Shown here in pieces: positions 46,249 through 64,000 of a DNA stretch of 64,000 nt. The stretch spans positions 64,001-128,000 of the IMG/VR virus record IMGVR_UViG_3300020473_002200, one strand, 5' to 3'. This DNA comes from a virus. How positions within the stretch are numbered: position 1 is the first letter of the stretch; the number at the start of each line of letters is the position of its first letter. Made by a program: the position numbers and the translations under genes. The notes under the pieces are model-generated. The model was not told where the DNA came from and ran no database searches. It saw only the letters and a program-made list of their open reading frames with translations.

Positions 46249-48744
46249 ATGGGAAATTTCGAAAAAGCACTATCAGAAAGCCTAGAATACTTTGGTGGGG
46301 ATGAGTTAGCGGCAAACGTTTTTGTAACAAAATACGCTTTAACAGACCGAGATGGGAATATTTTAGAAACAAATCCTGAACAGATGCATCGCCGATTAGC
46401 TAGCGAATTTCATAGAATAGAATCCAGATATAAAAATCCGCTAACGCAAAAAGAGATATTCGAGTTATTTGATCAGTTTAAGTACGTTGTGCCTCAAGGT
46501 TCACCAATGTCCGGTATTGGAAATCAGTTTCAGGTACAATCAATTTCAAATTGCTTTGTGATTGAAAGCCCGTTTGACTCCTATGGCGGAATTTTGAAAG
46601 TAGATCAGGAATTAGTCCAAATTGCTAAACGCCGCGGCGGAGTTGGATTTGATGTATCGACTATTCGCCCAAAGGGCCAAGCCACGGGTAACTGCGCGAG
46701 GACCACAGATGGGATTGAAGTATTCATGGATAGGTTCTCAAACTCCTGTCGAGAGGTAGCCCAGAACGGCCGTCGTGGGGCTCTAATGTTAACAATATCT
46801 GTCCATCACCCACAGGTTTTAGACTTTATAAAAATTAAAAGGGACTTGAAGCGCGTTACAGGCGCCAACATTAGTGTTCGATTAACTGATGAGTTTATGA
46901 AAGCTGTAAAAGAAGAAAAAGAAGTCCAATTACGCTGGCCAGTAGACAGTAAGAGTCCTGATGTTTCGAAGATGGCGTCGGCTAACGAGATTTGGGATCA
47001 AATTATAGAGTCAGCTCACGCCTGCGCTGAACCTGGTATTTTATTCTGGGATACAGCGAAATCAATGACTCCAGCAGACATATACACAGCTGATGGTTTT
47101 GGATCAACCTCTACAAATCCTTGTGGGGAAATTATCCTTTCTCCCTATGACAGCTGCCGTCTAATGTTAGTAAATTTAACTTCGTTTGTAGATTCAGCGT
47201 TTACCAAGAGCGCAAAATTTGATTGGGATAAATTTTCCGAAGTTGTAATAAAGACACAAAGATTAATGGACGATATGATCGATTTAGAGCTTGAGCAAAT
47301 CGATAAAATTATTAATAAGATTGAATCTGATCCTGAGCCTAGTCACGTAAAAGCTATTGAGTTGGATATGTGGAATAATGTAAAAAGTCGAGCTATTCAA
47401 GGTCGTAGAACGGGATTAGGAATTACTGGTTTGGGTGATATGTTGGCTTCTTTAGGCATTACGTATGGATCAAAAGAATCAATCAAGATGACTGAAGAAG
47501 TATATTCGAATCTAGCAACCAGCGCTTATAAATCTTCGTGCATTCTTGCAAAAGAAAGAGGCTCATTTCCAGTCCACGATCATAATCTTGAAAAGGATCA
47601 TCCATTCTTAAGTCGTATTTGGGAAAAAGATCCTGAAATCCTTGAGTTAAGTAAAAAGTTCGGTAGAAGAAATATCGCAATTACAACTACAGCGCCAGCA
47701 GGTTCAGTATCAGTATTAACACAAACTACATCTGGAATCGAACCTGCGTTTATGCTTCATTATATGAGAAGAAAAAAATTAACTGAAAATGATTTAGACG
47801 GTCGAGTTGATTTTACGGATGATAGTGGCGATAAGTGGCAAGAATATACAGTATACCATCATGGTTTCAAAAAATGGATGGAGACTCTTTCACCAGACAC
47901 GGTGGATACAACAAACAACGATAAGCTGGTTAAATTAAGCCCATATTCAGGCGCAACAGCGAATGAAATTGATTGGGTCGCAAAAGTTAAAATGCAAGCC
48001 GCGGCTCAAAAATGGGTTTGCCATGCAATTTCTAATACAACAAATCTGCCAGCAGACACTAGTATCGAGACTGTTAAAAGCGTATATATGGCAGGATGGG
48101 AAAGCGGTTGCAAAGGGGTGACCATTTATCGCGATGGTTGTAGAACGGGCGTACTCGTCAGTAATGAAGCCCCAGATATTTCTGAGCAAAAAATCCAAAA
48201 TATTAACGCACCTAGGCGCCCAGAGACTTTGTCATGTGAAATACATAGATCACAAGTTAAAGGTGAGGCGTGGACGATATTAATTGGTTTAATGGACGGT
48301 AGGCCCTACGAAGTCCTAGGTGGTAAGTCGGAGTTTATAGAGATTCCAGCGGCTTATAGTTCTGGTAAAATTACAAAGCGTGTCAGAAAGACTATGCCGT
48401 CTAAATATGATTTACACTTTGGCGAAAATGGGAACGAAGTAGTTGTTAAAGATATTGTAAAGGTTTTTGATAATCCTGATCATGCTGGGTTTACGAGAAT
48501 TATTTCTTTGGCTTTGCGCCATGGCGCACCTATTCACTATATCGTTGAGCAACTACAAAAAGATAGAGACGCTCATTTATTTTCATTTGCACGAGTTGTA
48601 TCCAGGGTGTTAAAAAAGTATATAAATGACGGCACAATCCCAGGTGGGAGCAGAGTGTGTCCTGAATGTGGGGCAGAAGACTCTATGAAGTACCAAGAGG
48701 GGTGTGTTGCATGTACCTCTTGTGGCTATTCCAAGTGTTCTTAA
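46249..48744 (+). CDS. nrdJ: Class II (adenosylcobalamin-dependent) ribonucleotide reductase
   Basis: SNCFV, TNPCGEI, APAGSVS, GIEP, ISNTTNLP, class II KGVTIYRDG, C-terminal CPECG...CxxC zinc ribbon. Confidence 0.92.
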   Translation: MGNFEKALSESLEYFGGDELAANVFVTKYALTDRDGNILETNPEQMHRRLASEFHRIESRYKNPLTQKEIFELFDQFKYVVPQGSPMSGIGNQFQVQSISNCFVIESPFDSYGGILKVDQELVQIAKRRGGVGFDVSTIRPKGQATGNCARTTDGIEVFMDRFSNSCREVAQNGRRGALMLTISVHHPQVLDFIKIKRDLKRVTGANISVRLTDEFMKAVKEEKEVQLRWPVDSKSPDVSKMASANEIWDQIIESAHACAEPGILFWDTAKSMTPADIYTADGFGSTSTNPCGEIILSPYDSCRLMLVNLTSFVDSAFTKSAKFDWDKFSEVVIKTQRLMDDMIDLELEQIDKIINKIESDPEPSHVKAIELDMWNNVKSRAIQGRRTGLGITGLGDMLASLGITYGSKESIKMTEEVYSNLATSAYKSSCILAKERGSFPVHDHNLEKDHPFLSRIWEKDPEILELSKKFGRRNIAITTTAPAGSVSVLTQTTSGIEPAFMLHYMRRKKLTENDLDGRVDFTDDSGDKWQEYTVYHHGFKKWMETLSPDTVDTTNNDKLVKLSPYSGATANEIDWVAKVKMQAAAQKWVCHAISNTTNLPADTSIETVKSVYMAGWESGCKGVTIYRDGCRTGVLVSNEAPDISEQKIQNINAPRRPETLSCEIHRSQVKGEAWTILIGLMDGRPYEVLGGKSEFIEIPAAYSSGKITKRVRKTMPSKYDLHFGENGNEVVVKDIVKVFDNPDHAGFTRIISLALRHGAPIHYIVEQLQKDRDAHLFSFARVVSRVLKKYINDGTIPGGSRVCPECGAEDSMKYQEGCVACTSCGYSKCS

Positions 48745-48756
48745 GGAGAGTAAAAT

Positions 48757-49359
48757 ATGAAGTGGATGACTAAAATATCACCGTTAATAAAAGAAGTAGA
48801 AATGCGTCATAACCCCGTAATAGTCAGGGTTAATAAATTCGATGAGGATGCTGCGAAAAAATTTGATCAAGAAATTGCGCGAGCGCACAATACGGGACAA
48901 AAGGTAATTCCCGTAGTTATTGATTCTTATGGCGGTCAAGTCTATAGCTTGATGTCAATGATATCAGCAATTAAACACTCTGAGCTTCCGATTGCCACGA
49001 TAGTCGAGGGTAAAGCGATGAGCTGCGGCGCTGTTTTATTTTCATTTGGGGAAGAGGGTCTCCGATTTATGGACCCAAATGCAACGGTTATGATTCATGA
49101 TGTTTCATCCATGGATTGGGGTAAGGTAGAGGAGCTTAAAGCTGGTGCGAAGGAAGCCGATCGCTTAAATACTAAAATATACACCATGATGGCAAGAAAT
49201 TGCGGAAAAAAAGATGATTATTTTATGAAGATTGTTGATAAGAAAAAGCATGCAGATTGGTTTCTTGATGCAGAAGAAGCAAAGAAACATGGGATGGCTA
49301 ATCAGCTAAGGATTCCAAAGATAACAATAGACGTTTCAGTCGAAATAGAATTAGAATAA
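48757..49359 (+). CDS. clpP: ClpP-like protease proteolytic subunit
   Basis: IDSYGGQV, AMSCG (Ser), MIHD (His), DWFLDAEEA (Asp region). Confidence 0.88.
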   Translation: MKWMTKISPLIKEVEMRHNPVIVRVNKFDEDAAKKFDQEIARAHNTGQKVIPVVIDSYGGQVYSLMSMISAIKHSELPIATIVEGKAMSCGAVLFSFGEEGLRFMDPNATVMIHDVSSMDWGKVEELKAGAKEADRLNTKIYTMMARNCGKKDDYFMKIVDKKKHADWFLDAEEAKKHGMANQLRIPKITIDVSVEIELE

Positions 49360-49994: not shown

Positions 49995-50801
49995 ATGCCT
50001 GAGGGACCAGAGTGCAGAAAATATGCCCTTTTTTTAGGTGATTATATCGGTGGTGACACACTAGAAAGCATTAATATAGTGTCTGGTAGGTATTCTAAAA
50101 AAGAATTACCAGGCTTAGAGGATTTTAAAAAAAAGCTACCATTACAAATCCAGGGTGTTGGGGTGCATGGTAAATTTATCTATTTCATCTTTCAAGACAA
50201 AAGCAGTCTTTGGTCGACCCTAGGAATGACCGGTGCTTGGGAAAAGTCAAGCTCAAATCACACACGGGTATCTTTAAGATTCTCAAATGGAAAAATAGCG
50301 TATTTCAATGATATGAGAAATTTTGGGACTATTAAGTTTTCTTTTGATCCAAAACAACTGGCAATGAAATTAGCTTCATTTGGCCCGGATATGCTGGCCG
50401 ATGATATTAGTAACGAGGTATTTCTTTCTTCTTTAAGAAAAAAAGACGATCTTAATATAACTAAAGCGCTACTAGATCAAACAGTTGTCGCCGGTGTAGG
50501 GAACTATATAAAGGCAGAGTCTCTTTATCTTGCAAGAATAAGCCCGTTTAGAAAAGTAAGAGACCTATCAGATGCGAATTTAAAAATATTAAATAAATCA
50601 ATAAAATCTGTAATGAGGGAATCGTTTCAAACAGGCGGTACGACGATAAATTCGTATAAAGATTTTTATGGTGAAATTGGTGATAACAATTCTCGTTTTT
50701 TAGTTTATAATCAAGATAGTGATCCAGATGGAAATCCTGTCAAAAAAGAAAAGACACCAGATGGCAGAACAACGCACTGGGTACCAGAAGTTCAGGGGTA
50801 A
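49995..50801 (+). CDS. Fpg/Nei DNA glycosylase-lyase (zincless-finger type)
   Basis: N-terminal MPEGPE, GKFI, LGMTG, F.D.R.FG, LGPD-like FGPD, LLDQ..VAGVGNYIK.E.L; C-terminal GRTTHWVPEVQ without Cys. Confidence 0.9.
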   Translation: MPEGPECRKYALFLGDYIGGDTLESINIVSGRYSKKELPGLEDFKKKLPLQIQGVGVHGKFIYFIFQDKSSLWSTLGMTGAWEKSSSNHTRVSLRFSNGKIAYFNDMRNFGTIKFSFDPKQLAMKLASFGPDMLADDISNEVFLSSLRKKDDLNITKALLDQTVVAGVGNYIKAESLYLARISPFRKVRDLSDANLKILNKSIKSVMRESFQTGGTTINSYKDFYGEIGDNNSRFLVYNQDSDPDGNPVKKEKTPDGRTTHWVPEVQG

Positions 50802-51057: not shown

Positions 51058-51744
51058 GTGAGCTACAAAGAAAAAATAAAGCAAAGACAAATTTTAAGAG
51101 AACTTCGTAAAGCGAAGGCTGAGCTGTCAATGCTTTCATCATATCTGCTAGAATGTGAAGACGCCTTAACTGAATATTCATTAGAGTGGAGCTCTGATTT
51201 AAAGTTTATACTTGAGCACTTGTCACCCAAGACAGAGCCGACCTCCAATGAAAAAGAAGAGAAACAGACCTTAGGCGGAAATTCGTTTCATCATTATAAA
51301 GATGAGAAAAAATTAGACGAAGTAGAATTAAAGCCGAATACGCCAGAGTGGGCCAAGAAAGCATTTCGAAAAATTGCGTTAAAAACACATCCTGACAAAG
51401 TTAGAGATCAGCCGAATGCAAAAGAGCTGGAAGATTTATACGCAAAAGCAAACGAAGCTGTTTTCGAAGAAAACTATGATATGCTTTTAGAAATATGTAA
51501 TCTGTTATCAATAGAAAATAATTTAGATCCAGAATTAGAGCTGAAATATAATGAGAAAAGAAGAACTTCGATTAAAGAAGAACTGCAGAAAATAACAGAG
51601 TCTTTGCCTTGGGTGTGGTGCGAATCATATGACAATCCCGCGATAAGAGAGGGTTTGTTATTATCAGTACTACCACATTATGGCATAAATAATTTAACAA
51701 AAGAAGATGTCTCTGATATCCTGGAAAAGCTTTTATCACGATAA
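51058..51744 (+). CDS. J-domain (DnaJ-like) protein
   Basis: KKAFRKIALKTHPDKV with an intact HPD motif, followed by ...ANEA; GTG start. Confidence 0.75.
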   Translation: MSYKEKIKQRQILRELRKAKAELSMLSSYLLECEDALTEYSLEWSSDLKFILEHLSPKTEPTSNEKEEKQTLGGNSFHHYKDEKKLDEVELKPNTPEWAKKAFRKIALKTHPDKVRDQPNAKELEDLYAKANEAVFEENYDMLLEICNLLSIENNLDPELELKYNEKRRTSIKEELQKITESLPWVWCESYDNPAIREGLLLSVLPHYGINNLTKEDVSDILEKLLSR

Positions 51745-51799: not shown

Positions 51800-52174
51800 A
51801 TGGCTGATCGGCTAGAGAAGATTTTTAATTTGCGCGGATCCTTTATGAAATTAATCTCAGAAAAAGTTTCAGGAGCATATCCGGAGTGGCCTGTAAATTT
51901 ACAAGACAAAAGATCTCAAAAGGCTTTAAGGGAAATTACATTTCGTAGTGTAGAAGAACTATTCGAGGCCTTATTACATCTCAAGAACTGGAAAGATCAC
52001 AGAGCGTCTAAAGATCAATTTGATCGAGAAGAATATCTTGAGGAAATGATTGACGCATTTAATTACTTTTTGGCTATTTTGGTGTTAACAGGTGTAGATG
52101 CGGATGAATTTTTTGAAGCATATAATCGAAAACATGAGATAATAGTTGATAGATTGTCAGAGATTAAGTCTTAA
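51800..52174 (+). CDS. All-alpha NTP pyrophosphatase (dimeric dUTPase / T4 gp56 dCTPase-like)
   Basis: EELFEAL..LKNWK.H and REEYLEEMIDAFNYFL (EExxE...EExxD) motifs; AGGAG SD. Confidence 0.8.
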   Translation: MADRLEKIFNLRGSFMKLISEKVSGAYPEWPVNLQDKRSQKALREITFRSVEELFEALLHLKNWKDHRASKDQFDREEYLEEMIDAFNYFLAILVLTGVDADEFFEAYNRKHEIIVDRLSEIKS

Positions 52175-52179
52175 AAAAA

Positions 52180-52208
52180 CTGAATAATTGCAATAATCCT
52201 ATTATAAT
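52180..52208 (+). promoter_or_regulatory. Sigma70-like promoter CTGAAT-N17-TATAAT upstream of dnaE
   Basis: -35 at 52180-52185, -10 at 52203-52208; same form as the 41791 promoter. Confidence 0.45.
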
Positions 52209-52253
52209 ATTCTTATCATAAATCAGCAATAAGATACAATTATAGGAAAATAA

Positions 52254-55200
52254 ATGATTAAATCTCCTAAGCGATTTACTTCTCTACATGCGCACGATGG
52301 CTTTTCAACTTTTGACGGATTAGGCTATCCCCAGGAACATATAGATTTTGTTCTAGAAAATGGTATGGATAGCTACTGTCTTACAAATCATGGCCATATG
52401 AACTCTTTTGGACATGCTTATTTACATGCGGAAAAAATTCGTAAACGTAACCCAGGTTTTAAATTTATCCCTGGTTGCGAGATGTATGTTCATCCCGATT
52501 TGCAGGTATGGGAATTAGATCGTCAAATTAGACAAGCTGCGAAAAAAGGTGATAAGGATGCCATCGCAGTGCTAAAAGCTCAACGTGAAGCAATAGCGAC
52601 ACCATTGACTGCTGTTGTAGATGGTGATGATGAAATTGTAGATATTACCACCGAAGAAGCCGGCTTGACAGTGGAGAATGAAGAAGAAACAAAGTCTGCG
52701 AAGTTTTATGATCCTATTAAGAGACGTCATCATTTAGTAGTGCTGCCAAAAACCAGTGAAGGACTACAACGATTATTTCACCTTGTTAGTAGGGGCTATA
52801 GGGAGGGGTTTTATCGTTTCCCAAGAGTAGACTATAAAATGCTACAAGAAGCCGCAGAGGGTGGTCACCTAATGGTTTCGACAGCATGTATTGGTGGCCC
52901 AATAGCGTATGAGGTATTTAGACACGCCCAACAAGTTGAGTTTGACGACCTAAGCCATAAGCTGCTTGACGATTCTTCATTTTATGAAAAGGTAATGACC
53001 GGTGTTGGAAATGCTTATCAAGGACTAGTTGATTCTGTCGGTATCAATGATGTAATGCTTGAGCTACAATTTAATAAGCTACCCGCACAGCACCTGGTGA
53101 ATAGAGCGATAATAGAGTTTGCAAATAGCCAGGGTATTACCGATAAATTGGTCGTTACGACTGATTCACATTATGCACGACCAGAGCACTGGCGTGAGCG
53201 TGAGCTTTATAAAAAGCTTGGGTGGCTTAATTATCGTGAGTTTGATCCATCAAAATTACCTCAATCTAAAGAAGACTTAAAGTGTGAGCTTTATCCAAAA
53301 AATGCAGAGCAAGTTTGGGACACATATCTTGAGACGACTGAAGGTATGGATTTTTATAATCACGAAGCCATCCGCGATGCAATAGAAAGACCTCACGATA
53401 TTGTACATCAGGAAATTGGAGAAATCCACCCTGACAGAAGTATGAAGCTACCTTCGTATGTTGTACCTAAGGGTATGACTGACGATAAGGCTCTTTTAGA
53501 AGCATGTAAAAAGGGGCTTATAGCTAGGGGTTTGGCGGATGATCCAAAATACGTTGAAAGAATAAAGCACGAATTAAAAATTATTAAAGACAAGAATTTC
53601 TCTCGCTACTTTTTAACGATGGAAGCTATTATTGAAATTGCTAAAAAGGCAATGCTCGTAGGACCGGGTCGAGGCTCTGCAGCAGGAAGTCTTGTTGCGT
53701 ACGTTCTTAGGTTAACTGATGTTGATCCATTCGAGTATGATCTTATGTTTGGTCGGTTTTTAAATCCATCTCGCGAGGGCGCGCCAGATATCGATACCGA
53801 TGTTGGCGATCGAGATCTACTCATTAATATGATGAAAGACAAGTGGGGTGATGAAAACATCGTTCCAATTTCTAACTACAATACATTTAAGCTTAAGTCT
53901 CTTGTCAAGGATATTTCTCGTTTTTATGGGATTCCATTTAACGAGGTGAATAAGGCTTTGGCTCCTGTTGAGGATGATGTAAAGAAAGCAGTCTTTAAGC
54001 AAGGGACTGACAAAAATCTATTTGTGTTACTTTACGAAGACGCCATCGCTCATTCTAAGACGTTTAGGGAATTCATCGAAAAGTACCCAGAAGTCGCCGA
54101 CCCTATCCAGGTTTTATTTAAGCAAAATAAAGCCTTGGGTCGACATGCAGGTGGCTGTATAGTAGCAGAAGACATTGCTGAAAGAATGCCTCTTATTAAG
54201 GCTCGTGGTGAACTACAGACGCCATGGGCTGAGGGTATGAATTATAAGCATCTTGAAACGTTTGGCTGGATTAAATTTGATCTACTTGGTCTGGAAACTC
54301 TTCGTATAATTCAACGCACAATTGAATTAATTTTGCAGCGTAAGGAAGGAATTGAAAACCCAACATTTGATCAAGTATATGAGTGGTTCAATTCTAATAT
54401 GGATCCTAAAGTTTTAGATATGGATGATCAACATGTCTATGAACATGTCTATGCAAAGGGTCGTTGGGCCGGCATATTTCAGTTGGCAGGTAGAGGTGCT
54501 CAGAATTTATTTAAGAAAGCTAAGCCAAAAAGTATCGTCGATATTGCTACGCTAACTTCGATATATCGTCCAGGTCCCTTAACAGCGAAAGTAGATAAGC
54601 TCTATATAAATGCCAAGAATAATCCGGATGATATTGATTATGGTCACCCTCTTATTAAAGAGGTTTTAGAAGAGACATACGGATTGATTGTGTTCCAGGA
54701 ACAGATTATGAAGTTATGCTCTGTGGTGGCTGGTTTCCCTGAGGAGGAAACAGACACAGTGCGCCGTAATATTATGAAGCGAAAAGCTTCCGAAGCCGCA
54801 GAGTCACTTGCTAAGGCTCGAGCAATTAAAGAGCAATTTGTCGCTGGATCTGTAAAGAATGGTGTTGATAGACAATTAGCTGATGATCTTTACGAAAAGA
54901 TTTTATTCTTCGCAGGTTACGGTTTTAATAAGTCACACGCTGTTTGTTATGCGATTGATTCTTACTACTGTGCTTGGCTACTAACATATTTCGAGGAAGA
55001 GTGGTTGTGCGCCTATCTTGAGTCAATGTCAGGTAATGATAAGAAGCGAGCAAAGGCTTTTTCGGAAGTCAAGGCGCTAGGATACACTATCGTACCTATT
55101 GACATTAACTACGCTACAAAATCGTGGACTATTTTAGAAGGTAAGAAGTTTATGCCTTCATTCCTTTCTTGCAAGGGTGTTGGCGAAGCCGCGATTGATG

Positions 55201-55856
55201 AGATATTGGCCAATAGACCATATTCAGACATTGATGATCTTTTATGGAATGAAGATGGTAAATGGAAGCACTCTAAGTTTAATAAAAGAGCGATGCAAGC
55301 GCTAATCGCGATTAAGGCGTTTGGGTCTATGAAGTGCGTTGGTAAAGATTCAATATTCGAAAGTTATAAGCATATGAATGAAGTTGTAATTGCCAACAAT
55401 ACAGAGGTTAAAAAGTGGACCAAGAAAGATCCAACACGAGGACAAGATGCGTTTAAGCGTATTTTGCTTGAGACTTCTGGGGAGGGTGAGTGGTCTAGAC
55501 ATGAGCAGGTACAAAATAGCGTGGCTCACCTAGGATCTTTTAACGTATCTACGCTAATATCACCAGAAGTGATTCAAAGACTGGACGATAAAGACATTAA
55601 TGTGATTGACGACTACAATGGTGTTGATTTACATTGGTTTCTCGTAATGGATGTGAAAGAAAAGTTGACTAAAAATAAAAAGCCATATCTGCTACTAACT
55701 GTTGCAGGAACCTCGGGCCAGCAATTTAGGATTTTTTGTTGGAGTTGGGATGGAAAGACGGAAATGCCAAAGTATAGTTTGTGTGTTGGTGAGTTGAATA
55801 AAAATGATTATGGATTTCAAACTTCTATGAGAAAAATCAAGGTACTTAAAGTATAA
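52254..55856 (+). CDS. dnaE: DNA polymerase III alpha subunit (family C, DnaE)
   Basis: PHP domain (HAHDGFSTFDG, TNHG, GCEMY, TDSHY), GPGRGSAAGSLVAY, PDIDTD catalytic motif, KFDLLGL, YRPGP, YGFNKSHA. Confidence 0.96.
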   Translation: MIKSPKRFTSLHAHDGFSTFDGLGYPQEHIDFVLENGMDSYCLTNHGHMNSFGHAYLHAEKIRKRNPGFKFIPGCEMYVHPDLQVWELDRQIRQAAKKGDKDAIAVLKAQREAIATPLTAVVDGDDEIVDITTEEAGLTVENEEETKSAKFYDPIKRRHHLVVLPKTSEGLQRLFHLVSRGYREGFYRFPRVDYKMLQEAAEGGHLMVSTACIGGPIAYEVFRHAQQVEFDDLSHKLLDDSSFYEKVMTGVGNAYQGLVDSVGINDVMLELQFNKLPAQHLVNRAIIEFANSQGITDKLVVTTDSHYARPEHWRERELYKKLGWLNYREFDPSKLPQSKEDLKCELYPKNAEQVWDTYLETTEGMDFYNHEAIRDAIERPHDIVHQEIGEIHPDRSMKLPSYVVPKGMTDDKALLEACKKGLIARGLADDPKYVERIKHELKIIKDKNFSRYFLTMEAIIEIAKKAMLVGPGRGSAAGSLVAYVLRLTDVDPFEYDLMFGRFLNPSREGAPDIDTDVGDRDLLINMMKDKWGDENIVPISNYNTFKLKSLVKDISRFYGIPFNEVNKALAPVEDDVKKAVFKQGTDKNLFVLLYEDAIAHSKTFREFIEKYPEVADPIQVLFKQNKALGRHAGGCIVAEDIAERMPLIKARGELQTPWAEGMNYKHLETFGWIKFDLLGLETLRIIQRTIELILQRKEGIENPTFDQVYEWFNSNMDPKVLDMDDQHVYEHVYAKGRWAGIFQLAGRGAQNLFKKAKPKSIVDIATLTSIYRPGPLTAKVDKLYINAKNNPDDIDYGHPLIKEVLEETYGLIVFQEQIMKLCSVVAGFPEEETDTVRRNIMKRKASEAAESLAKARAIKEQFVAGSVKNGVDRQLADDLYEKILFFAGYGFNKSHAVCYAIDSYYCAWLLTYFEEEWLCAYLESMSGNDKKRAKAFSEVKALGYTIVPIDINYATKSWTILEGKKFMPSFLSCKGVGEAAIDEILANRPYSDIDDLLWNEDGKWKHSKFNKRAMQALIAIKAFGSMKCVGKDSIFESYKHMNEVVIANNTEVKKWTKKDPTRGQDAFKRILLETSGEGEWSRHEQVQNSVAHLGSFNVSTLISPEVIQRLDDKDINVIDDYNGVDLHWFLVMDVKEKLTKNKKPYLLLTVAGTSGQQFRIFCWSWDGKTEMPKYSLCVGELNKNDYGFQTSMRKIKVLKV

Positions 55857-55862
55857 TAAATT

Positions 55863-56888
55863 ATGAGAAAATTTAAGAATTTTACTGACTGCTATCTATC
55901 TCTAATTAGAGAGGTCTATGACGATTATGAGTATGAATCATCTCCTAGGGGCCAGAAGATAAGAGAAAAACTGGGGGTTTCTTTTACAATAGAGGATCCT
56001 AGACATAGATACCCTTTTGTGTGGGGCAGAAATTTTAGCCCGACATATCTTGCAGCTGAGATGATCTGGTATTTATCTGGTAACAATGCTACAGAGTGGA
56101 TATCAAATTATTCAAAGTTCTGGTCCAATATTAGTGATGATGGAAAGACCGCTAATTCCGCTTATGGCGCTAGGATATTCCACACAAACCCTATTATCGC
56201 GGGAGGAAGGCTAAATCAGTGGGAATTTGTAAAAGGTGAATTAACAAGAGACCCGGATTCGAGAAGGGCAATCATTCATTTAAGGACTCCTGATGATAGT
56301 GTCGATGCAAAGCTGGATGTACCATGTACACTAAGTCTTCAATTCTTCATAAGAGATGCGCAGCTTCATATGATTGTTAATATGAGGAGTTCTGATCTTA
56401 TTTTTGGGATTGCTTATGATATTCCGGCTTTTACTTTTTTTCAAGAGATGCTTGCTCTAGAGCTAGGAGTTGAATTAGGGACTTATACGCACTGCAGTAA
56501 TTCTCTGCACATTTATGAAAGACACTTTAAGATGTGTAGAACAATTTTAACAGATCGAGGAGAACATGAGTCAATAATGGCTTTAGTACGCAATGGGGCT
56601 ATGCCAAAACTCAAGCATACCGACTTTTTGAACGGCAAGAAAGAAGAGTGGTTACAAAAGATCTTAGCATTTGAGAAAAAATTAAGATCATCCAATACAG
56701 AAATTGAATTAGATGAATTATTGCGAAACATATATCAAGGTGAGAATAAAAACATTTGGACAGATTTTGCGAGTCTGCTAGCTTATCATCGAGCAAAGAA
56801 GCTAGGTATCAACAGACAAATTTTAGAAAAGATAGACTTTGATTATTCTGGTTACGAAGTTGATTTAAGGAGAAGAAATGAAGTATGA
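55863..56888 (+). CDS. Thymidylate synthase-fold enzyme with dCMP-type specificity (dCMP hydroxymethylase gp42-like)
   Basis: AAEMIWYLSG, SAYGAR, DSRRA, catalytic DVPC155T, RSSDLIFGIAYD186 (Asp where dUMP-specific ThyA has Asn), SLHIYERH. Confidence 0.82.
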   Translation: MRKFKNFTDCYLSLIREVYDDYEYESSPRGQKIREKLGVSFTIEDPRHRYPFVWGRNFSPTYLAAEMIWYLSGNNATEWISNYSKFWSNISDDGKTANSAYGARIFHTNPIIAGGRLNQWEFVKGELTRDPDSRRAIIHLRTPDDSVDAKLDVPCTLSLQFFIRDAQLHMIVNMRSSDLIFGIAYDIPAFTFFQEMLALELGVELGTYTHCSNSLHIYERHFKMCRTILTDRGEHESIMALVRNGAMPKLKHTDFLNGKKEEWLQKILAFEKKLRSSNTEIELDELLRNIYQGENKNIWTDFASLLAYHRAKKLGINRQILEKIDFDYSGYEVDLRRRNEV

Positions 56889-57987
56889 TTATTTAATTGT
56901 GGGTGCCGGTATGTTCGGAGCTACATTCGCTAGAGAAATGTTAGATGCCGGTAAAACTGTTTTGGTATTAGACAAAAGAGAGCATATCGGTGGAAATTGC
57001 TACTCAGAAAGAAGAGAAGGTGTTGATGTTCATGTATACGGGCCTCATATTTTTCACACAAACAATGAAAAAATCTGGAATTTTGTAAATCGATTTGCAA
57101 CGTTCAATCAATATATCAATAAGCCTAAGGTCAATTTCCGTGGAAATATTTACTCATTTCCTATAAATTTAATGACTCTACACCAGCTTTGGGGAGTGAC
57201 AACACCCGCTGAGGCAGAGGCTAAATTACAAGAAGTCAGAATTCCTTGCGAGAACCCACAAAATTTAGAGGAATGGATTTTATCACAAGTTGGTAGAGAA
57301 GTTTATGAGACCTTTATCAAGGGCTATACTATGAAGCAATGGAAGCGGCACCCAAGCGAGTTGCCCGCTTCTATCATTAAACGCTTACCAATTCGTTTAA
57401 TCTTTGAAGAAAACTATTTCTTTGATAAATTCCAGGGTATTCCAAAAAACGGATATACGAAAATGATTGGCAATATGCTTGAAGGCGCAGATGTCCGGAC
57501 AGGCGTTGATTATCTAGAAGATAGAGAAACCTGGGATAGCATGGCCAATAAGACTGTATTTACCGGTAAGATTGACGAGTTTTTTGATTATGAGCATGGC
57601 TATCTAGAGTATAGATCATTACGCTTCGAGCATGAAGTTCACGATGGCGACTTTCAAGGAAACGCAGTCGTAAATTATACTGATTATGAAGTACCTTATA
57701 CTAGGATAGTGGAGCATAAACATTTTCAACCACAAGAGGCTGCGAGTCTTGAAAAGACGATAGTGACGAAAGAGTATCCGCAGGATTGGTCACCAAGTAA
57801 GGTACCGTACTATCCTGTAAATGATAAAAAGAACAGTGAGGTTTTTAAGAAGTATTCTGTTCTTGCTAGAAATAGTGATATAATATTTGGAGGTAGATTA
57901 GCTGAATATCGTTATTACGATATGCACCAAGTAATTGGTTCAGCTTTGCAAAAGGCAAAAAAAGAATTAAGGAATAATGGAGAATAA
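56878..57987 (+). CDS. glf: UDP-galactopyranose mutase
   Basis: FAD motif IVGAGMFG, HIGGNCY, YGPHIFHT, F...FQGIP..GY, TRIVEHKHF, PYYP, GRLAEYRYYDMHQVI. Confidence 0.95.
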   Translation: MKYDYLIVGAGMFGATFAREMLDAGKTVLVLDKREHIGGNCYSERREGVDVHVYGPHIFHTNNEKIWNFVNRFATFNQYINKPKVNFRGNIYSFPINLMTLHQLWGVTTPAEAEAKLQEVRIPCENPQNLEEWILSQVGREVYETFIKGYTMKQWKRHPSELPASIIKRLPIRLIFEENYFFDKFQGIPKNGYTKMIGNMLEGADVRTGVDYLEDRETWDSMANKTVFTGKIDEFFDYEHGYLEYRSLRFEHEVHDGDFQGNAVVNYTDYEVPYTRIVEHKHFQPQEAASLEKTIVTKEYPQDWSPSKVPYYPVNDKKNSEVFKKYSVLARNSDIIFGGRLAEYRYYDMHQVIGSALQKAKKELRNNGE

Positions 57988-59032
57988 TATGAGAGTTCTT
58001 TATAGCTTTTGGGGATTTATTACGCCGCTAGAAAAAAATTCAATGGTAAATACCCCGGATGGTGAGAGAGGTAATCGAGTTGATTTTGTAAGAGAATTAC
58101 AAAGTAGAGATCACACTGTAATTCAGCTTCAGAAAATGAGAGATGAAGAGCAGTTTCCGGGTGTTGAGTACAGCCCGGTTGGTTTTCCAGATGGTGATAT
58201 TGTATATTGCGAATGGCGTTGGCCGACATGGAAAAATTCTGGTAACAATCCTCAAGAATCTGACTATACTAGGCAATGTGAGGTTTTAGATCACTATCAT
58301 GCTGCTGGAGTGCCCATTATTATTCATGACGGCGATCTTAAAATGACAGCTGAAGAAGAACAGCGTTGGCCAAACGCTGTGATTTCCGATGCATGTGTAA
58401 ATCCTCGAATGCTAACTAGGAAAAGAATTTCAATCCCATGGTGCAATTATATGCAGCGTTATTTTTCGCCTGTCGAATATTCTTACAACTATACTTACGT
58501 TGGGAATAATTACGAGAGAGAAAATCAGTTTAAGAAATATTACGTTGACCCCAGCACCCCTCTAAGAGAATCAGGTATTCAGACATATGTTTGTGGTAAT
58601 TGGCTGGCCAGATCTCCAGAAAGAGAAGATCCTGGTGCTAGAATTACGAACGCGCCTAATGTTGCATTTGGTCCACGCCTTGCTTATAAAGATATTTTTT
58701 CTGTTTTGAATTCTTCTATTACGGTAACGCATATTACGAAAGATGACTATACACCTTTTGGAAACATTACGGGAAGGTTTTTCGAAGCTATCAAGAGTGG
58801 GGTACCAGCTTTAATTCCATGGGAATATGAGCACGCTCGCCCTGTTGGTCTTAGTGACGAATCATTAATCGTTAGATCTTCTGAGGATGTTGTTAAAAAG
58901 ACGAAGTGGATATCAACTCTTTCTGCAAACGATAGACTAGGTTTGGTAAATCTGCAGGAAGAGGCATTAAGGACAGTTATTGATCCTCGCCCTGAGGCCC
59001 GCGTCGACCTTTTGGAGCAGCTTTGCGGGTAA
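57977..59032 (+). CDS. GT-B glycosyltransferase resembling T4 DNA beta-glucosyltransferase / Glyco_trans_1_2
   Basis: YVGNNYER sugar-nucleotide-loop-like segment and C-terminal ITGRFFEAIKSGVPALIP (compare T4 BGT ITLRVWE..ASDAV.LID). Confidence 0.68.
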   Translation: MENNMRVLYSFWGFITPLEKNSMVNTPDGERGNRVDFVRELQSRDHTVIQLQKMRDEEQFPGVEYSPVGFPDGDIVYCEWRWPTWKNSGNNPQESDYTRQCEVLDHYHAAGVPIIIHDGDLKMTAEEEQRWPNAVISDACVNPRMLTRKRISIPWCNYMQRYFSPVEYSYNYTYVGNNYERENQFKKYYVDPSTPLRESGIQTYVCGNWLARSPEREDPGARITNAPNVAFGPRLAYKDIFSVLNSSITVTHITKDDYTPFGNITGRFFEAIKSGVPALIPWEYEHARPVGLSDESLIVRSSEDVVKKTKWISTLSANDRLGLVNLQEEALRTVIDPRPEARVDLLEQLCG

Positions 59033-59036
59033 AGTA

Positions 59037-59564
59037 ATGATTGTAGCTTTTATTGGTCCAGATATGACAGGAAAGTCGAATATAGCTTCTCGACTATCTA
59101 AAGAAATTAACATTCCTGTTTTTAAGAACACAGGCGAATGGAAGGCAGATTTAAGTGGAGATGATTATTATATAAATCTTCTTAAATTTGGTGGTACATT
59201 CTTGATGGACTTCTTGGTACAAACAAATCCATCTGCTATTTTAGATAGATTTTACCCTTGTGAATATGCTTATTCTAATGTGTTTAACCGTAGTTCTAAT
59301 AAGGATTTAATTTTAAAGCTGGATAAAAAGTTTTCTTCTATTAGCGGTAAATTTGTTTTTTGCTATAGAAGTAGCTATGATGGAATTAAAGATGATTTAT
59401 TTCCAGAGAAAATAAATTGTGAAACTCTAAAAAAAATAGAAAGACAATATAGAATATTTTTAGAGGAAACAAAATGTGATATTTTACATTTGGAAACGTC
59501 TGATATGAATCTAGAAAATCAGATTTTTAAAATTAAGAAATTTTTAGGAGTTGATGAAACATGA
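59037..59564 (+). CDS. Deoxynucleoside monophosphate kinase (thymidylate kinase-like)
   Basis: AFIGPDMTGKS P-loop and ILDRFYPCEYAY (DR motif); ATG at 59037. Confidence 0.8.
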   Translation: MIVAFIGPDMTGKSNIASRLSKEINIPVFKNTGEWKADLSGDDYYINLLKFGGTFLMDFLVQTNPSAILDRFYPCEYAYSNVFNRSSNKDLILKLDKKFSSISGKFVFCYRSSYDGIKDDLFPEKINCETLKKIERQYRIFLEETKCDILHLETSDMNLENQIFKIKKFLGVDET

Positions 59565-60565
59565 GTAAAAAAGCGTTAGTCACCGGCGGTTGTGGCTTTA
59601 TTGGTTCAAATTTGGCTATTAAATTAGTTGAGCAAGGATGGAGCGTTGACGTTGTTGATGATCTTTCTAGTGGCGATTTAGATGCATTAAAAAATTTAGA
59701 TATCAGGACTGTCACACCTGAGCTTTTAATACAGTATGAAGAGTCTGGAATTATTGAAGATAAGACCCTTGTAATCACTGGGGATTTTGCTAGTCCATAT
59801 GTCCTTTCTAGAATCGCTGATAAAAGATACGATTATGTATTTCACTTAGCTGCACTACCAAGAGTTCAATTTTCTGTAGAGAACCCTGTTTTGACAACAG
59901 ATCAAAATGTTATGAAAACAGTTTCGCTTATGACTGCTTGCATCGAAAATGTAGACAGATTTATTTTTAGTAGTTCATCCTCTGTATACGGAGATGTTTC
60001 TGACAATTTTCCCTCAAGGGAATCTGGTAACTATGAGCCAGCCTCTCCTTACGCATTACAAAAGTTAGTGGTTGAGAATTTTTGTCAATTATTTTTTAAG
60101 CTATATAAGCTTGAGTCTGTTTGCTTGAGGTATTTTAACGTATTTGGGCCTGGTCAGCCTGGAGACAGTCCATATTCAACTGCAGTATCTGCATGGTTGG
60201 ATAAAATTGCCACTAATCAGCCACTTCGAAGTGATGGAGATGGAGAGCAAACTCGTGATATCGTGTATATCGATGATGTTGTTGATGCCAATATAAGGGC
60301 AGCTGAAAGCCCCAAGACAATGAGCGGTAATACATACAATGTAGGCACAGGTGCGACGTATAGCAATAACGAGATCTTGGGTTTACTTAAAAATAAGTTT
60401 GGTGATCTTGAAATTAACCACGCGCCTGAAAGACCTGGCGACGTTAAGCATACAAAGGCAAATATAGCAAAGATTTTTGAAGATCTTGGCTGGAAGCCTA
60501 AGTGGGATTTTGTATCTGGGTTAAATGAAACAATAAAGTGGTGGGGTCTAAAAGAGAACTCCTAA
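59561..60565 (+). CDS. NAD-dependent NDP-sugar epimerase (extended SDR, GalE/WbpP-like)
   Basis: TGGCGFIGSN, FHLAA, SSSSVYG, YALQK (YxxxK), LRYFNVFGP, RDIVYIDDVV.AN. Confidence 0.92.
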   Translation: MSKKALVTGGCGFIGSNLAIKLVEQGWSVDVVDDLSSGDLDALKNLDIRTVTPELLIQYEESGIIEDKTLVITGDFASPYVLSRIADKRYDYVFHLAALPRVQFSVENPVLTTDQNVMKTVSLMTACIENVDRFIFSSSSSVYGDVSDNFPSRESGNYEPASPYALQKLVVENFCQLFFKLYKLESVCLRYFNVFGPGQPGDSPYSTAVSAWLDKIATNQPLRSDGDGEQTRDIVYIDDVVDANIRAAESPKTMSGNTYNVGTGATYSNNEILGLLKNKFGDLEINHAPERPGDVKHTKANIAKIFEDLGWKPKWDFVSGLNETIKWWGLKENS

Positions 60566-61164
60566 TGAAAAGAAACCCACGATTTGAAATTTTTACTGGC
60601 CCAATGTTTGGTGGAAAAACGACTCGTCTAATCGCTGCTTTAGATAGATACCAATACCAAAATAAGAGTATTTTACTGTTTAAACCAAAGATTGATAATA
60701 GGTATGATAAAAATTCCGTTGTAACGCATAGCGGCTTGAGCCTATCTTCTAGGACAGTGGGGTTTAGTCGTGTGGAAAATGTGGCAAATGGAGATGAATT
60801 ATTAGAAAGATTCGAGTATCTTAATTCTGGTTGCGATATAGACGTTGTCGCTGTTGACGAGGCATTTATGATTGGGGGATCCGCTAGTGCTCTTAAAGCG
60901 ATTTATAATTTTTTTGGGAAAACAATACTTGTTTCTAGTCTGCAATTATCGTCTTCTGGCGAGTCCTATAAAGAGATATTAGATATTTTACCATGGGCAA
61001 CAAATATTCAAATTTGTCCTGCAGTATGTGCTATTTGTGGCGAAGACGCTTATTTTACACAAAAAATCGCAGGGAATAATGATCCTGGTAAATTGGAGAT
61101 TGGTGGATCTGATTTGTATCAGCCTCGTTGTCATAATCATTTTAATCCACAGGAATTATTGTGA
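60565..61164 (+). CDS. tdk: Thymidine kinase
   Basis: GPMFGGKTT, KPKIDNRY, VAVDEAF, C..CG..A..T.K...GG...YQPRC..H; ATG overlaps the upstream stop (TAATG). Confidence 0.9.
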   Translation: MKRNPRFEIFTGPMFGGKTTRLIAALDRYQYQNKSILLFKPKIDNRYDKNSVVTHSGLSLSSRTVGFSRVENVANGDELLERFEYLNSGCDIDVVAVDEAFMIGGSASALKAIYNFFGKTILVSSLQLSSSGESYKEILDILPWATNIQICPAVCAICGEDAYFTQKIAGNNDPGKLEIGGSDLYQPRCHNHFNPQELL

Positions 61165-61577
61165 ATAAAAGTGCATGGGTTTTAAAGTCTGAAAAAATTG
61201 TAAAAGACTGGGGCCATGAAGTAAGATGGGATTTTGTAACGCAGCAAATATTTGGTAAAAAGCTTTTTATAAAAGAGGGGTTCTCAACAAGGACCAAGTA
61301 TTTTACCAATAAAAGCGAAACTTTTTTTCTAGAAGAAGGAGAGTTAGAAGTAGTTTTCGCTCCAGAATCTTATTTATTGAATAGAGACGTTCAGTTAGTT
61401 ACAAGAAGGGTTTTAGTTAAAGGAGACGTATTTCAAATTCAATCAGGGTGTCCATACACTTTAAAGGCTTTAGCTGATTGTAATATTTATGAAATCAGTT
61501 CATCAGGAAATTCCACTTTTTGTGTTTTAAATGATGAATATTTTAATATGACTGAACAAAGGAATAAAAATGGTTGA
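61161..61577 (+). CDS. Cupin-fold protein (mannose-6-P isomerase-like), metal His residues apparently lost
   Basis: K.WGHE...GK.L.I..G....KYF..K.ETF...G pattern; usual QYH and H ligands replaced. Confidence 0.6.
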   Translation: MNKSAWVLKSEKIVKDWGHEVRWDFVTQQIFGKKLFIKEGFSTRTKYFTNKSETFFLEEGELEVVFAPESYLLNRDVQLVTRRVLVKGDVFQIQSGCPYTLKALADCNIYEISSSGNSTFCVLNDEYFNMTEQRNKNG

Positions 61578-62430
61578 ACCCAACCAAGTGAATTGCGTAA
61601 TCTATCACGCAGATTGTACCGATGGTTTTGGTGCAGCATACGCTGCCTGGAAACAATTGGGTAATAGAGCAGAATATCATGCATGTAGACATGGTCAAAC
61701 CCCTCCAGATGTAAAAGACAAGATTGTTGCGATACTGGATTTTTCATTTGACAATGCCACAACAAAGCAAATGATTGAAGACGCAGAGGGCTTAATTGTT
61801 ATTGATCACCACAAATCTGCAATGGTAGAGCTTCATGATATATCAAATACACATTTCGATATGACTAAATCTGGCGCTATGTTATCGTGGGAATTTTTTC
61901 ATCCTGGTAAAGAACCGCCAAAGTTTGTAAGATATATTATGGATAGAGATCTCTGGACATGGGAGCTTGATTATTCAAAGGAATTTAGCGCTGCTTTTGA
62001 TATGGTACCATTTGAATTTGAGGAATTTGAAAAGTTTGAAGATGACTCAGTATTCGATGATGCAGTTAAGCGTGGTTCATATATCCTCGCATATTCAAAG
62101 ACAGTTGTAAAAAAAGTTTGTGAGAAAGCGGTTGTCCGTTACTTTGAAGATAAAAAGATTATGATAGTAAATGCGTCACACTGGATGTCAGAAATTGGGT
62201 CTAGATTATCTCCCGATTGTGACTTTGCAGTGATCTGGTATTTTGATCATGATATGGGTATTACTAAGGTTAGCTTAAGATCTTTTCATGACAATGTAGA
62301 TGTTAGTGAGTTTGCTAAAAAATTTGGGGGTGGTGGTCATAAGAAGGCCGCCGGCTTTACTCTCCCAATAGATCAGCATATTGACAATTTATTTACTCTA
62401 GAACCAGAAAAAAAGGAAGAATCTTCATAA
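61570..62430 (+). CDS. DHH/DHHA1 phosphoesterase (NrnB/oligoribonuclease-like)
   Basis: YHADCTDG, ILDFS, IDHHKS, D.DLW.W, GGGGHKKAAGF. Confidence 0.88.
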   Translation: MVEPNQVNCVIYHADCTDGFGAAYAAWKQLGNRAEYHACRHGQTPPDVKDKIVAILDFSFDNATTKQMIEDAEGLIVIDHHKSAMVELHDISNTHFDMTKSGAMLSWEFFHPGKEPPKFVRYIMDRDLWTWELDYSKEFSAAFDMVPFEFEEFEKFEDDSVFDDAVKRGSYILAYSKTVVKKVCEKAVVRYFEDKKIMIVNASHWMSEIGSRLSPDCDFAVIWYFDHDMGITKVSLRSFHDNVDVSEFAKKFGGGGHKKAAGFTLPIDQHIDNLFTLEPEKKEESS

Positions 62431-63886: not shown

Positions 63887-64000
63887 ATGGAAAATAACCA
63901 CAGACCTTCTTGGGATAGCGTCTGGGCGAATGTAGCAACTGCGATTTCTAAAAGATCATATGATCCACGCTATCAGGTAGGCGCAATCGTCGTAACGTCT
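63887..64000 (+). CDS. dCMP deaminase, N-terminal fragment (runs off the window)
   Basis: Translates MENNHRPSWDSVWANVATAISKRSYDPRYQVGAIVVTS, matching the RPSWD...RS......VGA.IV start of dCMP deaminases; not in the supplied ORF track. Confidence 0.78.
   Translation, partial: MENNHRPSWDSVWANVATAISKRSYDPRYQVGAIVVTS

Follow-up and report, generated by a model that had tools for sequence, protein, structure and literature searches.

A gene cluster predicted to hydroxymethylate and glycosylate cytosine, with its own UDP-galactopyranose mutase, in an uncultured phage

The window analysed here is a 64,000-nucleotide stretch of DNA, bases 64001–128000 of the 188,264-bp IMG/VR virus record IMGVR_UViG_3300020473_002200 (39% G+C; class 'provirus'; CheckV completeness estimate 67%). 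It carries a run of ten plus-strand genes in which a thymidylate synthase (TS) homolog, a UDP-galactopyranose mutase (Glf) and a glycosyltransferase (GT) lie side by side, and this run is the subject of the present analysis. A first-pass annotation, made from the DNA letters alone, had read it as a T4-like cytosine modification pathway joined to a furanose donor route. An open reading frame (ORF) check of the window found all ten genes at the same coordinates, and their families were assigned by profile matches.

The run opens with an NTP pyrophosphohydrolase gene of MazG/PRA-PH type, a candidate dCTPase (51800–52174; PF01503, 2.3e-6; phrog_12184, 2.4e-13), followed by a DnaE-type replicative DNA polymerase with PHP, Pol III alpha, finger and HhH domains (52254–55856). 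Then come the TS homolog, a TS-fold enzyme predicted to be a dCMP 5-hydroxymethylase (55863–56888; PF00303, 2.8e-31); Glf (56878–57987); a GT-B glycosyltransferase of an unnamed family, which is a candidate DNA 5-hydroxymethylcytosine (hmC) glycosyltransferase (57977–59032); a P-loop nucleotide kinase with the motif GPDMTGKS, a candidate 5-hydroxymethyl-dCMP (hm-dCMP) kinase (59037–59564; phrog_761, a weak match at 2.7e-7); and an NAD-dependent sugar-nucleotide 4-epimerase from the short-chain dehydrogenase/reductase (SDR) family, for UDP-glucose (UDP-Glc)/UDP-galactose (UDP-Gal) or their N-acetyl forms UDP-GlcNAc/UDP-GalNAc (59561–60565; PF01370, 4.9e-52). Genes for a thymidine kinase (TK), a small cupin and a DHH phosphoesterase complete the run. 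The TS and Glf genes overlap by 11 nt, as do the Glf and GT genes; the other overlaps are 4 nt between kinase and epimerase (ATGA), 4 nt between TK and cupin (GTGA) and 8 nt between cupin and DHH. From the TS homolog onwards the junctions are 4–11-nt overlaps or 3–4-nt gaps, in agreement with the tight coupling described in the first-pass annotation. The kinase most likely starts at the ATG at 59037, 4 nt past the GT stop, where the ortholog alignments begin. Chance can hardly account for this arrangement, since dozens of diverged metagenomic phage contigs contain these genes together.

The TS homolog is the sole PF00303 match in the record. Its closest solved relatives are the MilA/BcmA enzymes of nucleoside-antibiotic pathways, which share its length (∼340 aa) and its cytosine-specific Asp; in a sequence search of the PDB the MilA CMP hydroxymethylase was the best match (1.2e-47), with thymidylate synthases and T4 gp42 far behind (∼7e-17 to 1e-19). 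Identity to T4 gp42 was 27%. The protein was aligned with T4 gp42 (product hm-dCMP), RB69 gp48 and the enzyme of Rhizobium phage RL38J1 (both 5-hydroxy-dCMP), SPO1 gp29 (hm-dUMP) and the canonical TSs of RB69 and RL38J1. In ThyA numbering, position 177 is Asn in enzymes acting on uracil and Asp in those acting on cytosine, position 143 is Leu where the product is methylated and Asp or Glu where it is not, and a change from Asp to Asn at position 169 marks the 5-hydroxycytosine (5hoC) synthases (Lee et al., NAR 2026, PMC13326640). The window enzyme matches T4 gp42 in having Asp143, Cys146, Asp169 and Asp177, within the motifs D-V-P-C-T ... M-R-S-S-D ... A-Y-D. The Cys of D-V-P-C-T aligned with the catalytic Cys (ThyA 146) of all the references. 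Around position 177, the window enzyme reads A-Y-D against P-F-N in the TSs and G-A-N in SPO1 gp29, a dUMP hydroxymethylase with Asn177; around position 169, it reads R-S-S-D against R-S-Q-N in RB69 gp48 and the RL38J1 enzyme, the 5hoC synthases with Asn169. A thymidylate synthase was rejected on the Asp143/Asp177 pair, canonical TSs having Leu143/Asn177, and a 5hoC synthase on the retained Asp169.

A CMP-specific, MilA-like enzyme was also rejected. In MilA, Ala176 and Lys133 confer the preference for CMP, and Ser and Arg at these positions bring back a preference for dCMP (PMC5175136). The R-S-S-D and p-d-s-R-R segments of the window enzyme align with R-A-N-D and p-d-s-K-R of MilA, so that Ser and Arg replace Ala176 and Lys133 and the deoxyribose-specificity residues (Ser167/Arg126′-type) are present. 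The TS homolog thus carries every diagnostic residue of a dCMP hydroxymethylase, and the dCMP-type Asp noted in the first-pass annotation is confirmed. From Asp143/Cys146/Asp169/Asp177 and the Ser/Arg pair, we infer dCMP hydroxymethylase activity with 5-hydroxymethyl-dCMP as the predicted product.

The GT (351 aa) reached no curated family, PF13524 (Glyco_trans_1_2) giving only a sub-threshold hmmscan match (1.6e-4). No tblastn match to it was present in 50,697 phage records. A distant member of the family, from locus L067, likewise had no tblastn match among cultured phages, and no isolate with this GT family was found; metagenomes yielded 136 relatives, the contigs carrying them reaching 290 kb in some cases. 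An AlphaFold model built from 37 relatives (predicted local distance difference test score 93.8) had a compact two-Rossmann GT-B fold of ∼350 residues. Its best structural match was T4 beta-glucosyltransferase (BGT), and its Foldseek matches included T4 BGT, T4 alpha-glucosyltransferase (AGT) and the glycosyltransferase of phage HY126. Profile–profile alignment with hhalign placed the invariant R267/E270 of the GT family on R269/E272 of BGT, which we take to be UDP-binding residues. The description of this protein as BGT-like holds for its GT-B fold, the similarity at the level of sequence profiles being weak. Searching all the ORFs of the record with a hidden Markov model of the GT family returned zero paralogs.

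In all, 61 loci containing a GT homolog, 57 from IMG/VR and four from assemblies, were collected and searched with the window proteins. A TS homolog lay within 10 kb of the GT in 57 of the 61, and three of the four exceptions were truncated contigs. Where the TS copies were scanned for the diagnostic motifs, 55 of the 57 matched; Asp169 and Asp177 were present in all 55 and Asp143 in 53. The GT–TS link held down to 23–28% GT identity. The kinase also accompanied the GT across the loci, and the window-type epimerase was present in essentially all loci whose GT was at least 38% identical. That the GT and the TS homolog occur together even at 23–28% identity argues that the GT is tied to DNA cytosine modification, and is the strongest argument we have for this role over one on a different acceptor.

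Glf scored 379.3 bits against TIGR00031 (1.9e-113), above the equivalog cut-off of 303.75, and consists of an FAD-binding N-terminus (PF13450) and a GLF domain (PF03275, 3.8e-76); the first-pass identification of this gene, which is coupled in translation to both the TS homolog before it and the GT after it, was thus confirmed. Glf was found beside the GT in three settings. In the clade of the window (12 distinct GT sequences, 71–95% identity) the order was always TS-Glf-GT-kinase-epimerase, at locus L062 it was SDR-Glf-kinase-GT-epimerase-TS, and at L067/L069, where the GT was 28% identical, it was Glf-kinase-GT-TS-deaminase-DnaE. When 49 distinct GTs were placed on a maximum-likelihood tree, at least three changes in Glf status were needed, and the window clade had support of 100/99. 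That Glf repeatedly stands directly beside one GT family, across three lineages, speaks for a link in function. In the sister clades, the epimerase stands either by itself or with a second SDR of the dehydratase/UDP-xylose-synthase type. Glf is therefore an optional donor module, an accessory outside the conserved core. The co-occurrence of glf, TS and GT genes, proposed in the first-pass annotation as a check, was widespread for TS, GT and kinase, and Glf was missing from most relatives. At L062 (7379–12966), in a distant relative, a UXS/ArnA-like SDR, Glf, kinase, GT, 4-epimerase and TS homolog form one row; such a set could yield UDP-arabinofuranose (UDP-Araf), by way of UDP-glucuronate (UDP-GlcA), UDP-xylose (UDP-Xyl) and UDP-arabinopyranose (UDP-Arap), rather than UDP-galactofuranose (UDP-Galf).

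The epimerase has the extended-SDR fold with GxxGxxG and YxxxK motifs (PDB alignment). Its nearest solved relatives were 6dnt (1.4e-54), PelX (6wjb, 1.7e-51), 4zrm (T. maritima GalE), WbgU and WbpP, with E. coli GalE at only ∼3e-25; PelX is a group 3 UDP-GlcNAc 4-epimerase. Since UDP-GlcNAc/hexose 4-epimerases (PelX, WbgU, WbpP) are closer to the protein than E. coli GalE is, the sugar could be N-acetylated.

A profile of seven kinase orthologs matched SPbeta YorR (2axp, 5.1e-12) and then deoxynucleoside and thymidylate kinases; T4 gp1 (1dek) was not among the matches listed. The L067 ortholog of the kinase matched PF02223. For the MazG-like protein no match was found in a PDB sequence search, and its orthologs lie close to the cluster in many relatives. 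It belongs to the MazG superfamily of NTP pyrophosphohydrolases and not to the dUTPase family; the gene labelled 'dCTPase/dUTPase-like' in the first-pass annotation is a candidate functional analogue of the T4 gp56 dCTPase. The 5′ part of a dCMP deaminase gene occupies 63902–64000 on the plus strand and continues past the window end (genome 127902–128297); tblastn gave 44–69% identity to the dCMP deaminases of the related loci L002, L004 and L005.

We lean slightly towards reading these genes as a T4-style pathway of cytosine replacement and glycosylation to which a phage-encoded sugar-donor branch has been added. The TS homolog, judged by the residues read in the alignment, would convert dCMP to 5-hydroxymethyl-dCMP. 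The P-loop kinase, with host NDP kinase, would raise hm-dCMP to the triphosphate, while the MazG-like pyrophosphohydrolase and the dCMP deaminase would deplete dCTP and dCMP, and the phage DnaE polymerase would then make hmC-DNA. In the donor branch, the SDR 4-epimerase would turn host UDP-Glc or UDP-GlcNAc into UDP-Gal or UDP-GalNAc, which Glf would contract to the furanose form, and the GT-B transferase would glycosylate the 5-hydroxymethyl group in DNA. The parts of this scheme differ in strength. That the cluster makes hmC which is then glycosylated is likely; that galactofuranose, or its N-acetyl form, is the sugar that ends up on the base falls a little short of an even chance. The T4-like pathway with a furanose donor route proposed in the first-pass annotation is supported in part, by the hydroxymethylase signature, the GT fold, the co-occurrence of GT, kinase and TS homolog across loci and the identity of Glf, and less so where it has the GT use a furanose.

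A wider proposal is more tentative. The 351-aa GT may found an unnamed GT-B family of DNA hmC glycosyltransferases in uncultured large DnaE-encoding phages, with the donor sugar set by swappable adjacent sugar-nucleotide cassettes (the epimerase alone; the epimerase and Glf; or the epimerase and a UXS/dehydratase-like SDR, with or without Glf). The product here would then be galactofuranosyl- or N-acetylgalactofuranosyl-hydroxymethylcytosine, a chemically undescribed base.

Several points weigh against this interpretation. The phage is uncultured, and its pathway is a prediction from gene sequences. Most relatives with an orthologous GT (40–62% identity) are without Glf, and a switch from pyranose to furanose donor is not visible in the GT residues: only at five positions (I15, V103, K273, T333 and I335) does the Glf clade have a fixed residue that the Glf-less clades compared do not show. 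Four of the five are conservative or variable, leaving K273, next to the R267/E270 helix, as the sole suggestive one, and it is not shared by L062. In the structural ranking, BshA, PimA, PglA and AGT came within 1.7 Z of T4 BGT, and the hhalign comparison of the GT family with T4 BGT and its Lactobacillus phage homolog was weak (probability 46%, E 2e-4, C-terminal domain only). The epimerase fell below the GalE equivalog cut-off (TIGR01179, 160.3 against 262.3 bits). In addition, near-complete relatives carry some ten glycan genes elsewhere in the genome that could use UDP-Galf.

These genes form a glycan island that was seen in three more complete relatives of the Glf clade (G001, G002 and G003), ∼100 kb from the cluster; one island-bearing relative is 281 kb long, at 92% completeness. 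In G001 (IMGVR_UViG_3300022935_000005) the island occupies 30–54 kb (L091 and L092). It contains four GT2 genes, GT10 and GT11 fucosyltransferase-like genes, two sulfotransferases, a GDP-mannose 4,6-dehydratase, two DegT aminotransferases, two GT4 genes of the 'GT4-conflict' family and a PD-(D/E)XK nuclease, and lies beside a tail-fibre-like gene. The record of the window opens precisely with the homolog of the gene that comes next after the island in a relative; an island of bacterial look may have been lost from this genome through 'provirus' trimming. No other GTs were found in the 188-kb record with PF00534, PF00535 and PF13692, a result of little weight given that the record is truncated and that the PF13524 control missed the window's own GT, a family search with PF13524 passing over sub-threshold members of this kind. 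With the record cut at the island site and the control failed, the absence of other GTs from it is therefore uninformative.

A scenario that we regard as unlikely, though it deserves serious weight, is that hmC receives a pyranose (Gal, Glc or GalNAc) from this GT, as presumably in the Glf-less sister clades, and that Glf feeds a different transferase, which would add a second, furanose sugar on top or build a non-DNA glycan from the distant island. The orthologous GT and epimerase of the many relatives without Glf, and the near lack of clade-specific GT residues, are what one would expect from such a division of labour, and the GT2, GT10, GT11 and GT4 genes of G001, G002 and G003 offer candidates for the second enzyme. 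There is also a precedent in RL38J1, where three GTs build hexose chains on the DNA, up to three sugars long (PMC13326640). The position of Glf argues the other way, since its gene overlaps those of the TS homolog on one side and the GT on the other by 11 nt each and stands directly beside this GT family in three lineages; that a second GT was not found in the truncated 188-kb record, by a search whose control failed, adds little.

The fucose, amino-sugar and sulfate genes of the relatives' large island, beside a tail-fibre-like gene, could also be taken to mean that Glf, the epimerase and the GT act off DNA, on virion proteins or on host or phage polysaccharide or lipid, and are merely placed in an early/replication operon; the GT fold is, after all, common to the non-DNA GT-B enzymes BshA, PimA and PglA. 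We consider this improbable, given that in 57 of the 61 loci, down to 23% identity, a hydroxymethylase-type TS homolog and a nucleotide kinase accompany the GT, that it is translationally coupled inside a nucleotide-metabolism block, and that T4 DNA glucosyltransferases stand at or near the top of its structural matches. Least probable, and barely to be entertained, is a MilA-like route: a free hydroxymethyl-cytosine nucleotide, made by the TS homolog, would be destined for a small molecule, and the target of the GT would be a nucleotide or base, not DNA. Of the solved relatives, MilA leads by a wide margin in sequence similarity (1.2e-47, compared with ∼7e-17 for T4 gp42), but both of its CMP-preference residues are of the deoxy type here (Ser, Arg), family scans of the cluster proteins showed no MilB-like N-glycosidase, and the context is one of DnaE, kinase, TK and dCMP deaminase.

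The favoured reading, hmC made at the mononucleotide level and then glycosylated with a donor that the phage itself helps to make, can be set against several known systems. The T-even phages make glucosyl-hmC with gp56 dCTPase, gp42 dCMP hydroxymethylase, gp1 dNMP kinase, the Cd deaminase, and alpha- and beta-glucosyltransferases. The window shares with T4 the gp42 active-site signature, a kinase, an NTP pyrophosphohydrolase, a dCMP deaminase, and a GT-B enzyme whose top structural match is BGT. Its enzymes are nevertheless not T4 orthologs: the TS homolog is closer to MilA than to gp42, the kinase resembles YorR and thymidylate kinases and is not demonstrably of gp1 type, the pyrophosphohydrolase belongs with MazG, the GT has only weak profile similarity to BGT, and the polymerase is DnaE, not family B. 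Whereas T4 takes host UDP-glucose directly, the window phage encodes an epimerase and Glf.

RB69 and DLP3 carry arabinofuranosyl chains on 5-hydroxycytosine (Lee et al., NAR 2026; bioRxiv June 2025; PMC13326640), so that a furanose on phage cytosine is established for arabinose. The DNA of RL38J1 has galactose-(glucose)1-2 on 5-hydroxycytosine, and the production of UDP-galactofuranose by the phage Glf has been proposed (PMC13326640). The first-pass annotation, which knew of no reported galactofuranosylated DNA base, is overtaken on this point by the proposal, and no other publication linking Glf to hmC hypermodification turned up. As in the window, a TS-superfamily enzyme of the 5hoC systems sets the attachment point at the mononucleotide level, and a thymidylate kinase-like kinase, GT-B transferases and, in RL38J1, a phage Glf as donor-pathway enzyme are present. 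The window enzyme differs in keeping Asp169, which predicts hmC. The window GT showed no sequence similarity to anything in the RL38J1 record, and the RL38J1 Glf is not adjacent to TS or GT genes, unlike the single coupled unit of the window.

Lactobacillus phage ATCCB (MK504445.1), a cultured phage unrelated to that of the window, encodes a hydroxymethylase-type TS, a T4 BGT homolog and Glf in one plus-strand row. It resembles the window in that a TS with this signature leads a row with GT-B and Glf genes, which counts in favour of the reading above. The transferase of ATCCB is a genuine homolog of T4 BGT (31% identity, E 7e-40), and no similarity to the window GT was detectable in the whole ATCCB record. 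It is an 80-kb siphovirus-type phage of a Gram-positive host, with no adjacent epimerase or kinase, and the paper describing it is silent on DNA modification and on the TS, BGT and Glf genes. ATCCB is the most accessible system for a direct test of Glf-linked hmC glycosylation.

Sugars on cytosine protect phage DNA from restriction enzymes and CRISPR nucleases, and their presence selects in turn for type IV restriction systems. If the pathway proposed for the window is correct, a hexofuranose would be added to the known decorations of hmC, and a new DNA glycosyltransferase family with exchangeable donor modules would become available, with possible use in enzymatic labelling of 5hmC. Phage DNA sugar diversity would then arise by the swapping of small sugar-nucleotide cassettes beside a conserved hydroxymethylase/transferase core. 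The practical value is tempered by the partial publication of the idea for 5-hydroxycytosine phages (PMC13326640).

The remaining genes of the run are TK (60565–61164, plus strand; PF00265, 3.1e-34), which most likely starts at the ATG at 60565 (TAATG junction) and has an alternative GTG start at 60538; the small phosphomannose-isomerase-like cupin (61161–61577, plus strand; phrog_7851, 1.3e-14); and an NrnA-like DHH/DHHA1 phosphoesterase (61570–62430, plus strand; PF02272, 1.1e-8; phrog_4771, 9.2e-75). Cupin orthologs gave weak Cupin_1 and MannoseP_isomer matches, a PDB sequence search with the cupin gave nothing significant, and its atlas neighbours were viral cupin clusters. It is kept beside the epimerase in L002, L004 and others. 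At an apparent metal-binding position, the window copy has Phe (K-Y-F) where L002 and L004 have His (K-F-H and K-Y-H, respectively), and it may be a copy without metal binding.

RecA, a 5′–3′ exonuclease, DnaB, ribonucleotide reductase, ClpP and an Fpg/Nei glycosylase are encoded upstream; with RecA, exonuclease, DnaB and ribonucleotide reductase as neighbours, the cluster is therefore part of a replication and nucleotide-metabolism module. The DnaE polymerase is 84% identical to that of L002 and at most 30% identical to that of any cultured phage. No near-identical DNA to the window was found in the phage collection, and a tRNA scan of the window returned zero tRNAs. The ribonucleotide reductase of the replication module (46249–48744) carries a C-terminal TSCPD domain, and the gene after it (48757–49359) encodes a ClpP protease. 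Just upstream of the run, which is predicted to modify all cytosines, the window encodes at 49995–50801 a complete DNA glycosylase of Fpg/Nei type (Fapy_DNA_glyco, H2TH and zinc-finger domains), which is unusual phage cargo. Directly before the MazG-like gene, a 228-aa protein (51058–51744) has weak WbqC-like (an O-antigen cluster family) and DnaJ matches and a 34% identical ortholog in L002; it could belong to the pathway.

Two of the related loci showed further features. In the 290-kb relative (L002:1836–3159), a HAD hydrolase and a sugar-1-phosphate nucleotidyltransferase (NTP_transferase) are encoded upstream of DnaE, a few genes away from it; the record of the window, which is truncated, yielded neither. 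In the 258-kb relative, the DnaE gene is split by intein-like segments (L004:1–5300; Intein_splicing matches), and an N6/N4 DNA methyltransferase gene lies between the GT and the kinase (L004:11094–11960).

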